The notes beneath the pieces are model-generated. The model had not been told where the DNA came from. It saw only the letters and a program-made list of their open reading frames with translations, and searched no databases. From Dictyostelium discoideum (Eukaryota): DNA of 1,953 nucleotides. The stretch covers positions 1 to 1,953 of the forward strand of contig CH709166.1 of assembly GCA_000004695.1 (NCBI GenBank), written 5' to 3'. Positions 1 to 1,896 of this stretch are shown here, one piece after another (the first letter of the stretch is position 1; each line of letters begins with the position of its first letter). A program made the position numbers and the translations under genes.

Positions 1-96
1 CTCCATTGATTTCATTCTTAAATCAAAGGATTCAGCGCTATTAGAGGCAGAGGTACTACTACTAGAGGCATCATTATATTTAACAGTGGTAGACAT
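1..96 (-). CDS. 5' end (first 32 codons) of a gene running off the left window edge; Ser/Thr-rich N-terminus MSTTVKYNDASSSSTSASNSAESFDLRMKSME
   Basis: The reverse complement of 94-96 is ATG, preceded on the minus strand by caataaaatATG (an A-rich Kozak-like context) with an in-frame stop two codons upstream. The frame stays open for 32 codons to position 1. An AT-rich putative promoter lies upstream on the minus strand (97-215). It is absent from the ORF track, presumably because of the length cut-off. Confidence 0.35.
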   Translation of the reverse strand, partial: MSTTVKYNDASSSSTSASNSAESFDLRMKSME

Positions 97-184
97 ATTT
101 TATTGTTGATATCTAAAATTATAATATGAGAAAAATAATAATATTAAAAATTAATAAAGAGAAATAATTATTTGTATATTTTTT

Positions 185-196
185 GTGTGTGTGTGT
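185..196. repeat. (GT)6 dinucleotide microsatellite
   Basis: gtgtgtgtgtgt read directly. Confidence 0.9.
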
Positions 197-203
197 ATCT
201 TAA

Positions 204-212
204 ATATATATA
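204..212. repeat. (AT)4 microsatellite abutting the outer end of the left arm
   Basis: atatatata followed by ggagg, then the arm begins at 217. Confidence 0.8.
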
Positions 213-316
213 GGAGGAATTCCCAAATAAAATAAATCAAATTGTTTTAGTTTTTAGTGCCACTATTTATACGTTTTTATTTTCTTAAAAATTTCGCAAA
301 ACTCAAAAAAATAAGA

Positions 317-418
317 GTTTTCGACCCTTCACAACTTTGTGCATAGTGTCGGTTCGGAATTTTTCAGTTTTTCGACCTTGTGCAATGATCGCGTCATTGT
401 GCCGGTTCGAAATTTTTA
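317..418 (+). repeat. Diverged tandem duplication of about 50 bp inside the left arm
   Basis: The two units share gttttcgacc ... ttgtgca ... tgtg(t/c)cggttcg(g/a)aattttt. Confidence 0.7.
383..399 (+). other. Perfect 6-bp stem / 5-nt loop hairpin, caatga-tcgcg-tcattg, in the left arm
   Basis: Read directly. The homologous position in the right arm (about 1519-1545) is disrupted but carries a different palindrome, ttgcgcaa. Confidence 0.6.
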
Positions 419-451
419 CTTTTCTTTCGAAAATTTTTTTATTCTTCTCAT

Positions 452-466
452 GTTCTAGAACATTCT
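452..466 (+). promoter_or_regulatory. Three-unit heat-shock element (nTTCnnGAAnnTTCn) in the left arm, embedded in the 14-bp perfect palindrome atgttctagaacat (450-463)
   Basis: gTTCtaGAAcaTTCt matches the Pelham consensus CTnGAAnnTTCnAG at 13 of 14 positions. A TATA-like aaataaataaat lies about 30 bp further inward (497-508). Confidence 0.45.
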
Positions 467-518
467 AAAAAATTATCTTAAATATTTGGGAAATTCAAAT
501 AAATAAATGTTATTCATA

Positions 519-530
519 ATATATATATAT
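519..530. repeat. (AT)6 at the inner end of the left arm
   Basis: Read directly. The right-arm counterpart has 7 units. Confidence 0.85.
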
Positions 531-615
531 GATAATATGGATTCTGCTGCAAGATTTGATATTCTTTATTGAAATATCAGCGAGAATGATTGACAAAACG
601 CGGACGTTCAGTTTT

Positions 616-888
616 TTACTTTTCATGCTCTGCAGCATCCTTAATCTGGATGTGATTTTCATCACCGTGACGACCACAGAACACACCACGGGTTGCCATA
701 TAGTCGGCGAGCATGTTACCACAATGACCGGCATGACCTTTAACCCACTGCATGGTAAACCCAATCTTACGGTCTTTCATTAACTGTACTTTGTCAGTTA
801 ATGTAATCGACAGTTCTTTGTTAGATATGGATTCCCCATCACTCTTCTTCCTGTTGTTTGCTTTCCAACGGGGAAGATAACTCGTCAA
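616..888 (-). CDS. RNase HI-like protein, C-terminal portion only (TTG start in the track; probable gene fragment or degenerate homolog)
   Basis: The translation ...ANNRKK...[12 protein letters not shown]...[23 protein letters not shown] aligns with E. coli RNase HI ...TTNNRME...EVILSTDSQYV...[23 protein letters not shown]. The TD (D70 region) and HAGH...D (D134 region) motifs are present. The roughly 30-aa basic protrusion is shortened to 16 aa, and the N-terminal strands carrying D10 and E48 are absent. An in-frame stop lies 3 codons upstream of the TTG. Confidence 0.5.
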   Translation of the reverse strand: [90 protein letters not shown]

Positions 889-903
889 ACGTACTCAGAA
901 TCT

Positions 904-909
904 GAATAA
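904..909 (+). promoter_or_regulatory. AGGAGG Shine-Dalgarno-like hexamer with no canonical start codon at proper spacing
   Basis: ctaggaggc. The only start-like codon downstream is TTG at 922 (12-nt spacing), which opens a 23-codon hydrophobic ORF (922-993, LSIAISIPLKVAFNSATFLFTAN). Confidence 0.25.
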
Positions 910-1055
910 ACTAGGAGGCTTTACGCGTTCTTGTCGATAGCAATCTCAATTCCGCTTAAGGTTGCTTTCAACTCAGCTACGTTTTTATTTACAGCAAATT
1001 AATGCAGACTTTGGAGACATCTTAAATAACATCGTTATTGGCGATATGACTACAG

Positions 1056-1265
1056 ATGGAAAGTACTGGTGCCCTGAATACTTCCAGGCATCCGGCCGGA
1101 TCTGGCGAAGACAACACGGTTAAGATCTGGTTTTCTGATCCAGTCTTTGCCCTGAGCTACCCACGCTTTAAAATCCTGTTTGAACCATCAGTACATGTTG
1201 AAGATATCGATGTGCTGCACGAAGACTGTGTGACAGCAAAGCCGCTATTACTAAAGGGGATCTGA
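1056..1265 (+). CDS. Hypothetical 69-aa ORF of unknown function
   Basis: ATG-initiated ORF from the track. Codon usage resembles the RNase H-like ORF, but there is no recognisable motif and no ribosome-binding site. It lies divergent from the RNase H-like ORF with a 167-bp spacer. Confidence 0.2.
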   Translation: MESTGALNTSRHPAGSGEDNTVKIWFSDPVFALSYPRFKILFEPSVHVEDIDVLHEDCVTAKPLLLKGI

Positions 1266-1346
1266 CGACTCGTGATCATTGGTAATCTCCCGCAAACCAA
1301 CATTATTGATATGGCGTTTAAGGTCTATGATAAAGAAAACCCCACC

Positions 1347-1387
1347 AAATTAAAAATATATTTTATTAAATTATATTTTATATTAAA
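1347..1387 (+). repeat. 41-bp AT-rich segment X on the inner side of the right arm; inverted copy at 1734-1774
   Basis: The reverse complement of 1734-1774 equals 1347-1387 with 2 mismatches. Confidence 0.75.
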
Positions 1388-1388
1388 C

Positions 1389-1402
1389 ATATATATATAT
1401 AT
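1389..1402. repeat. (AT)7 at the inner end of the right arm
   Basis: Read directly. Confidence 0.85.
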
Positions 1403-1454
1403 TATGAATAACATTTATTTTTTTGAATTTCCCAAATATTTAAGATAATTTTTT

Positions 1455-1470
1455 AGAATGTTCTAGAACA
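1455..1470 (-). promoter_or_regulatory. Mirror-image heat-shock element in the right arm (aGAAtgTTCtaGAAca), with the same 14-bp palindrome at 1458-1471
   Basis: Same motif as the left arm. A TATA-like atttatt lies inward at about 1413-1424. Confidence 0.45.
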
Positions 1471-1496
1471 TGAGAAGAATAAAAAATTTTCGAAAG

Positions 1497-1600
1497 AAGA
1501 GTAAAAATTTCGAACCGGCACAATGACGCGATCTTTGCGCAAGGTTGAAAACATAAAAATTCCGAACCGACACAAGGCACGAATTTGAAGGGTCGAAAAC
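1497..1600 (-). repeat. Corresponding tandem sub-repeat inside the right arm
   Basis: aaaatttcgaaccggcaca ... aaggttgaaaaca is followed by aaaattccgaaccgacaca ... aagggtcgaaaaca. Confidence 0.7.
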
Positions 1601-1698
1601 ACTTATTTTTTGAGTTTTGCGAAATTTTTAAGAAAATAAAAATGTATAAATAGTGGCACTGAAAACTAAAACAATTTGATTTATAGAATTCCGACTTA

Positions 1699-1714: not shown

Positions 1715-1720
1715 ACTGAA

Positions 1721-1734
1721 ATATATATATATAT
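1721..1734. repeat. (AT)7 microsatellite
   Basis: Read directly. Confidence 0.85.
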
Positions 1735-1774
1735 TTAATATAAAATATAATTTAATAAATTAAATTTTTAATTT
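1734..1774 (-). repeat. Inverted copy X' of 1347-1387 on the outer side of the right arm
   Basis: See above. Together with the (AT)7 tracts at 1389-1402 and 1721-1734, it forms a palindrome of about 55 bp interrupted by the right arm plus a 28-nt GC-rich tail. Confidence 0.75.
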
Positions 1775-1896
1775 ATATTATAATATCACAACGATGAAAA
1801 TTACACCTTTTAAAGCAACTTTAAATTATATTAAAAGTGGATTTAAAGTCCTATAAAAAAGTCACTTAAAAATTAATTTAAAAGCAATTTTTTAAA

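Follow-up and report, generated by a model that had tools for sequence, protein, structure and literature searches.

A probable relic of jumbo-phage DNA lodged between DIRS-1 retroelements in the Dictyostelium discoideum genome

Horizontal gene transfers from prokaryotes to Dictyostelium are known, as are fossils of foreign DNA such as nuclear mitochondrial DNA segments (NUMTs). Here we consider DDB_G0294298, a gene model of Dictyostelium discoideum AX4 with a 90-codon open reading frame (ORF) that resembles the C-terminal half of ribonuclease HI (RNase HI) and lies between copies of the retroelement DIRS-1. The model sits on a complete unplaced contig (CH709166.1 of GenBank assembly GCA_000004695.1), all 1,953 nucleotides of which were analyzed and are referred to as the window. 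The complete window recurs, ungapped and at 99.8% identity, in the 43.8-kb contig JBTAPE010000006.1 of a second D. discoideum assembly, GCA_054883475.1; the locus on that contig, for which 20.7 kb of context was examined, is labeled L007. In DIRS-1, the long terminal repeats (LTRs) are inverted and non-identical, the right one carrying an extension of 27 bp (PMC4482531), and an internal complementary region (ICR) lies just inside the right LTR (PMC7192593). Promoters have been described in the LTRs (PMC3950715, PMC4482531), integration has been modeled as proceeding by way of a trinucleotide at a circle junction (PMC7192593), and clusters of DIRS-1 form the centromeric regions of Dictyostelium (PMC3950715). 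The other system with which the locus has to be compared is that of the jumbo phages of the family Chimalliviridae. In these, the gene for an RNase H-family protein of ~505 amino acids (aa) and that for a virion structural protein of 437-445 aa are divergent neighbors with one small gene between them, an arrangement seen in the phages AH06 and Simmy50 and in the uncultured contigs L008, L009, and L010.

The comparison makes it very probable that the ORF is the longest open stretch of decayed, horizontally acquired jumbo-phage DNA in the nuclear genome of D. discoideum and that it is non-functional. This origin, which emerges from homology, from the PHROG families, and from synteny, had been missed by the initial annotation. 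At the nucleotide level, the core of the window between the DIRS-1 flanks matches 17 records of Erwinia Agricanvirus jumbo phages, which are placed in the Chimalliviridae, at 68-76% identity and across two genes; neither E. coli genomes nor plasmids gave a DNA match. Every phage record that the ORF matches as a protein (91/91) belongs to a jumbo phage, phiKZ, PhiPA3, and Goslar among them, with Agricanvirus giving the best matches. The best protein matches are phage-type throughout, the top relatives being jumbo-phage proteins of 490-520 aa. When 1.84 billion representative sequences were searched exhaustively with phmmer, the query cluster came back as a singleton, followed by a protein 55% identical; the top matches of this search are nearly all 490-520 aa long and are aligned at residues ~120-215. 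The sole close protein in a collection of 5.8 billion sequences is DDB_G0294298 itself (hypothetical protein, partial, D. discoideum AX4), and the cluster to which it belongs also includes KAM9950988.1, a gene model from the other D. discoideum assembly, and no other species. Exact-product look-ups of variants of the ORF returned no record, and IMG/VR, JGI metagenomes, and GTDB genomes, when scanned specifically for close relatives, gave either nothing or matches of only 50-58% over 23-26 residues.

We aligned the ORF with E. coli RNase HI and with its closest cultured phage homolog. It is a minus-strand frame of 90 codons that opens with TTG, as first described, and has a stop codon two codons before this start. 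The reported similarity to RNase H is likewise sound (PF00075, E=4.6e-9, 37 bits against a cut-off of 25.8 bits; PHROG 3265, ‘ribonuclease’, E=1.3e-19), with the PF00075 match limited to profile positions 76-140 of 141 and the whole domain not contained in one frame. The WVKGHAGH block is present, its H52 (codon 733-735) corresponding to E. coli H124, and so is the acidic residue that follows, D62, equivalent to E. coli D134 (codon 703-705). Other details had been misjudged. What had been read as the TD motif is a TLTD that, in the alignment with RNase HI, pairs with L107-D108 of the E. coli enzyme and not with the catalytic D70. The start, once placed at the equivalent of residue ~40, actually corresponds to E. 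coli residue ~78, and the region of the basic protrusion, supposedly replaced by a 16-aa segment, is in fact present in the alignment (compared stretch NWKKRGWKTADK). The ORF holds D134 alone of the catalytic carboxylates D10, E48, D70, and D134 (E. coli numbering), plus H124. Because three of the four carboxylates are missing, its product is predicted to be without RNase H activity.

The ORF is only a portion of what survives of the gene. An N-terminal remnant, said to be lacking upstream, occurs in another minus-strand frame at 889-989, which reads NKNVAELKATLSGIEIAIDKNA, a stop, and SLLVYSDSEYV and matches the phage TNNVAELTATINGIDLALQQNTESLIIISDSKYV; a tblastn search with residues 92-123 of AH06_153 matches the same stretch in L007. 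An in-frame TAA at 921-923 interrupts this remnant, and a 10-nt deletion at ~887-890 shifts the frame between it and the ORF. At the other end, homology runs past the stop of the ORF (KTERPRFVNHSR, a stop, and YF, compared with KTERPRFVTHSRWYF in the phage), with TAA (616-618) and TGA (577-579) taking the place of a Tyr and a Trp codon of the phage, respectively. In total, the RNase H remnant has three stop codons and one frameshift. The D10 region, beyond a junction at 989, is entirely missing, and the ~290-aa C-terminal region of the phage RNase H protein is not covered, the homology ending at residue ~240. The fragment aligns with the Erwinia Agricanvirus phages at 70-76% nucleotide identity by blastn (E down to 7e-27) and at 54% over 87 aa by tblastn (E=7e-27). 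Its closest relatives, which came to light with the complete phage protein as query, are uncultured and lie on contigs of the same gene order (P0011, P0015, and P0016; 64-66% protein identity over 143 aa), and it shares 67.7% nucleotide identity with L008 over 568-986. The possibility of a full-length gene restored by a single frameshift, which would have meant a mere sequencing error, fails on three counts: the remnant ends at E. coli residue ~44, there are stop codons as well, and the core is identical in the second assembly. Two options had been left side by side, a gene fragment or pseudogene and a minimal non-catalytic RNase H-like module. As the ORF is part of a longer remnant with three stops and a frameshift and adjoins another broken gene of the phage, the former is right and the latter falls away: it is one open stretch of a broken gene.

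The second broken gene, on the opposite strand, is a fragment of the virion structural protein gene, two separate pieces of which match PHROG 3293 (E=3.2e-5 and 8.4e-4). It finds Simmy50 and RAY by blastn (E=3e-6) and is recovered in pieces by tblastn (4e-12, 1.6e-14, and 7e-5); its best match is L008, with 66% nucleotide identity over 988-1241 and 62-73% at the amino acid level. Its reading frame shifts between 1085 and 1107, a TGA interrupts it at 1263-1265, and there are deletions that keep the frame; over both fragments, the count is four stop codons and two frameshifts. The two fragments keep the order and the divergent orientation of the phage genes and map to positions 5705-5274 and 4141-3769 of L008, so that 1132 bp are missing at a clean junction near 989. 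Since L008 is the closest sequence to both, the fragments point to a single donor segment from which these 1132 bp were deleted. In the phage homologs themselves (L001, L008, L009, and L010), the RNase H protein is ~500 aa long, with the RNase H domain in the first ~220 residues. The domain includes a poly-Lys insert and is followed by a conserved region of ~290 residues without a Pfam match.

The flanks were assigned to DIRS-1 by means of the published cloning primers DM_132 to DM_135 (PMC4482531 S1 Table). The left-LTR primers DM_132 and DM_133 map to 512-541 on the minus strand and to 218-233, the latter with GAATTCCCAAATAAAA at that place; DM_135 lies at 1350-1380 with two substitutions and DM_134 at 1666-1691 on the minus strand with one indel. 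The left LTR and the inverted right LTR are 93% identical over 312 aligned columns, and the right one has exactly 27 extra nucleotides at its outer end. In the ICR, 1721-1774 is 94% complementary to 1347-1400 and DM_135 matches exactly at 1741-1771 on the minus strand, while the part matching the left-LTR end is recognizable for ~15 nt only. A 20-nt stretch within the RNase H ORF, 651-670, is 80% complementary to 1786-1805, that is, to the part of the ICR due to pair with the left-LTR end; we considered whether this might be meaningful and judged it probably a matter of chance. The first ORF of the copy on the left (copy A) continues in L007 to 684 aa with RVT_1 (E=1.5e-27) and RT_RNaseH domains, and a second copy of window positions 1-538, 96.9% identical, occurs 8 kb away in the same locus. 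Both this copy and the one on the right (copy B) lie on the minus strand of the window, with their outer LTR termini facing the core. The inverted repeats of ~300 nt that had been noticed (232-530 and 1391-1684, 91-98% complementary) are thus real; the idea that the ORF is cargo inside a retroelement does not follow from them, as one arm is the left LTR of copy A and the other the right LTR of copy B. With the outer termini abutting the core, and with copy A's ORF1 and copy B's ICR on the far sides, the fragment lies between elements and not inside one. That the arms might be the terminal inverted repeats of a thug, Tdd, or DDT type of DNA transposon, or might come from a Dictyostelium plasmid, was also considered and was rejected when the DIRS-1 primers matched. 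The ORF was further considered as the RNase H domain of DIRS-1 itself; that domain belongs to another family (PF17917/PF17919), and the synteny of the structural gene with phages was decisive.

The junctions bear on how the two kinds of DNA came together. In element orientation, the right junction reads ...ATATTTTTAA-TTT-GGTGGGG(core) and the left junction (core)...GCAGAATCC-ATATTATCAT..., the left LTR having TCC where the canonical first TTT would be expected, as against TTTATATTATCAT in the second copy of L007. The TTT that follows the right LTR pairs with a phage Lys codon (AAA as against AAG), which is the pattern expected of DIRS-1 integrating into pre-existing phage-derived DNA. It is conceivable, if rather unlikely, that events ran the other way, with phage DNA being joined at a DIRS-1 circle or head-to-tail junction, exactly at the tyrosine-recombinase crossover, and the composite then entering the DIRS-1 cluster. 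The flanks (rLTR...TTTTTAA-TTT-(core)-ATATTATCAT...lLTR) sum exactly to the canonical junction preserved in the ICR of copy B (TTTTTAA-TTT-ATATTAT), with nothing lost or duplicated relative to a circle junction; copies A and B have one orientation, as they would at a circle or tandem junction, and DIRS-1 is thought to integrate via a circular intermediate and the junction trinucleotide (PMC7192593). However, the AAA/TTT beside the right LTR aligns with a phage Lys codon and could equally be derived from the target through an ordinary DIRS-1 insertion, and the left junction shows TCC in place of the TTT that a canonical insertion would give. Moreover, copy B is apparently a 3' fragment only, no DIRS-1 interior being recognized to its right in L007, and a single locus affords no statistics for such a capture. 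Were it true, the DIRS-1 recombinase, or the repair of a cleaved junction, would be able to join foreign DNA that had been ingested to the DIRS-1 clusters at the centromeres, which would give the ‘you are what you eat’ mode of gene transfer in amoebae a concrete molecular route.

A contaminant or assembly chimera, in which phage-like DNA was joined to DIRS-1 during cloning or assembly, has very little probability. The AX4 record is indeed a tiny unplaced contig of 1953 bp, and the G+C content of its core (40-50%) is foreign to the flanks (8-25%). Yet the second assembly has the identical core with the same junctions inside a 43.8-kb contig, so that the core is genuine amoeba DNA, its lesions are not sequencing errors, and the locus is contiguous with host sequence in two assemblies. 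The two records differ at four bases, at positions 179-181 and 1949, none of them within the core. Nor does a chimera sit well with junctions placed exactly at LTR termini, with gene breakage not expected of a live contaminating phage, or with the lack of any close match in phage, plasmid, E. coli, IMG/VR, JGI metagenome, or GTDB collections. As to the four differences, positions 179-181 are TTT in the AX4 contig and AAA in the second assembly and adjoin a (GT)n run at 185-197, and position 1949, A in the AX4 contig and C in the second assembly, falls within the terminal tandem repeat.

Least credible of all is the idea that the ORF has been domesticated as a minimal RNase H-like module without catalysis, for instance as a hybrid-binding or regulatory peptide made from it: 90 codons have stayed open, the most conserved block of the family is kept, and two annotation pipelines called a gene here, but the ORF is without D10, E48, and D70, the remainder of the same gene has decayed on both sides into other frames or behind stops, the start is a TTG with no in-frame ATG before codon 37, there is no recognizable promoter and the known LTR promoters face away, the protein cluster consists of D. 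discoideum sequences only, and the newer gene model joins antisense to sense remnants by implausible splicing. That model, KAM9950988.1 (P0002; 141 aa, L007 10001-10688), splices an antisense structural fragment (MLVCGRLPMITSRQ...) to RNase H remnants and is an artefactual gene model on pseudogene debris.

For the derivation of the ORF from decayed jumbo-phage DNA we envisage the following course. The donor would have been a lytic, nucleus-forming jumbo phage of the Chimalliviridae, from a clade close to Agricanvirus and to certain relatives known only from uncultured material. A segment of at least ~1.9 kb, spanning the divergent RNase H and virion structural protein genes, would have entered the amoeba nuclear genome, perhaps after the amoeba had eaten phage-infected bacteria or phage particles, and may have been joined to a chromosome by end-joining. 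About 1.1 kb would then have been lost from the middle and both ends cut down, with four stop codons and two frameshifts being acquired and neutral drift presumably following. Insertion of DIRS-1 might have trimmed the phage DNA further, the TTT at the right junction being as expected of recombinase-mediated integration. This would have left the remaining ~0.8 kb wedged between the 3' end of copy B (ICR and right LTR) and the 5' end of copy A (left LTR and ORF1), two copies that share an orientation within a DIRS-1-rich region.

Several points weigh against this course of events or leave it less secure. The donor is unsampled, its nearest relatives reaching only ~67% nucleotide and 64-66% protein identity, and there is no further phage DNA within 10 kb on either side of the locus. 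The differences between the core and phage AH06 are not significantly A/T-biased (116 vs 93, p=0.13). The D. discoideum genome has ~22% G+C. With the core still at 42-44% G+C and no significant bias, a long residence in that genome gains no support. The two assemblies with identical cores may share a laboratory lineage, and the route of entry and the mechanism of integration are inferred.

Table 1. Features of the 1,953-nt window
Feature	Positions	Strand	Remarks
DIRS-1 copy A, start of first ORF	1-106	-	ATG 104-106, reading leftwards out of the window
DIRS-1 copy A, left LTR	218-541	-	Outer (5') end ~538-541 at the core; inner end at EcoRI site 218
Phage-derived core	~542-1349		~0.8 kb, between two DIRS-1 LTRs
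Stretch from LTR end to last clear phage homology	542-565		~24 nt; AH06 alignment fades at ~566; possibly decayed phage sequence
RNase H-family pseudogene fragment (PHROG 3265)	566-989	-	Phage residues ~92-240 of a ~505-aa protein
Reported ORF, DDB_G0294298	616-888	-	90 codons; phage residues ~130-217, E. coli RNase HI ~78-155
Out-of-frame N-terminal RNase H remnant	889-989	-	E48 codon 972-974, D70 codon 900-902
Virion structural protein pseudogene fragment (PHROG 3293)	989-1346	+	Phage residues 98-228
AAA (TTT in element orientation)	1347-1349	-	Directly after the right-LTR terminus
DIRS-1 copy B, right LTR	1350-1691	-	342 nt; outer (3') end 1350 at the core; 27-nt extension 1350-1376
DIRS-1 copy B, ICR	1717-1804	-	Plus strand ...AAATTTTTAA-TTT-ATATTATAATAT, canonical circle junction

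Some further features of the DIRS-1 copies and of their surroundings deserve mention. The copy A ORF (L007 11208-13262) runs from the ORF1 start codon straight into the reverse transcriptase domain at residue 323 and has no match to a tyrosine recombinase, which suggests that copy A has been internally deleted or rearranged. The surrounding 10 kb in L007 is a mosaic of inverted DIRS-1 pieces, and upstream of copy B a repeat of 650-760 bp, from another family, is found four times (L007 1-648, 3440-4199, 4900-5657, and 6173-6929), at 98-99% identity and in both orientations. Each LTR of the window contains the perfect palindrome ATGTTCTAGAACAT (450-463 and 1458-1471), which is like the core of a heat-shock element (GAAnnTTC), and two sub-repeats of ~60 nt that end in GGTTCGRAATTTTT (330-440 and 1480-1590); judged by their motifs, the palindrome and sub-repeats would fit the reported stress-inducible transcription of DIRS-1. 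A 12-nt tandem repeat, TTTAAAATGACC, is present in 5.2 copies (96% match) at 1890-1952, in the presumed 3' non-coding part of copy B, and reaches the end of the contig. Neither Rfam (at E<=1) nor scanning for tRNAs gave a match in the window. The core itself is present once in the 20.7 kb of context and as a single protein cluster in the databases.

As an RNase H, then, the ORF is ordinary and of no consequence, and DDB_G0294298 and ACTFIT_009745 deserve to be marked in the databases as debris of a pseudogene. The value of the locus lies in the direct physical evidence it gives for the arrival and fixation of DNA from a strictly lytic, nucleus-forming jumbo phage in the germline-equivalent genome of an amoeba that feeds on bacteria. 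Because it is unselected debris and not a domesticated gene, what it reflects is the raw inflow of foreign DNA. The position shows that DIRS-1 clusters tolerate, or perhaps attract, such DNA, and the 0.8-kb core, being unique, might be used as a single-copy marker within a repetitive DIRS-1 cluster. Horizontally acquired, decayed foreign DNA is a known phenomenon in itself; a donor among the lytic, nucleus-forming jumbo phages and a position in a DIRS-1 cluster are uncommon. We found no published report of this locus in the literature on the gene or on phage-related horizontal transfer in Dictyostelium.

Compared with E. coli RNase HI and the PF00075 family, the ORF shares the signature of the C-terminal half, namely the region of the basic protrusion, the WVKGHAGH block with H124, and N130...D134. 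Unlike that enzyme, it comprises the equivalent of residues ~78-155 only, with D10 absent and E48 and D70 out of frame behind a stop, and on this alignment it could not be a DEDD-type nuclease. With the Chimalliviridae (AH06, Ea35-70, RAY, Simmy50, and L008-L010), the window shares homologs of both genes, at 54-66% protein and 67-76% nucleotide identity over the conserved parts. It differs from the phage locus in having only partial genes, in the loss of the small intervening gene, in its stops and frameshifts, and in its eukaryotic host. The LTRs, the 27-nt extension, the ICR, and the reverse transcriptase ORF of DIRS-1 (GenBank M11339; PMC7192593, PMC3950715, PMC4482531) are all recognizable here; in contrast to an intact DIRS-1, the LTRs of the window come from two truncated copies, and the phage DNA occupies the flanking or target position. 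The nearest engineered parallel is the DIRS-1 inverted terminal repeat knock-down cassette (Friedrich et al. 2015, PMC4482531), in which a foreign insert likewise lies between inverted left and right LTRs. There, both LTR promoters are directed at the insert from its two sides and small interfering RNAs are made, whereas the present arrangement is inside-out, with the known LTR promoters pointing away from the core and diverging from it. Silencing RNA from the core would therefore not be expected, barring read-through, and a read-through RNA of the locus would fold into a stem of ~300 bp. Finally, like the horizontal gene transfers of Dictyostelium and like NUMTs, the locus represents foreign DNA fixed in the nuclear genome of a phagotroph and fits the notion of ‘you are what you eat’; it departs from them in that the donor was a strictly lytic jumbo phage and in that what remains is debris and not a domesticated gene.

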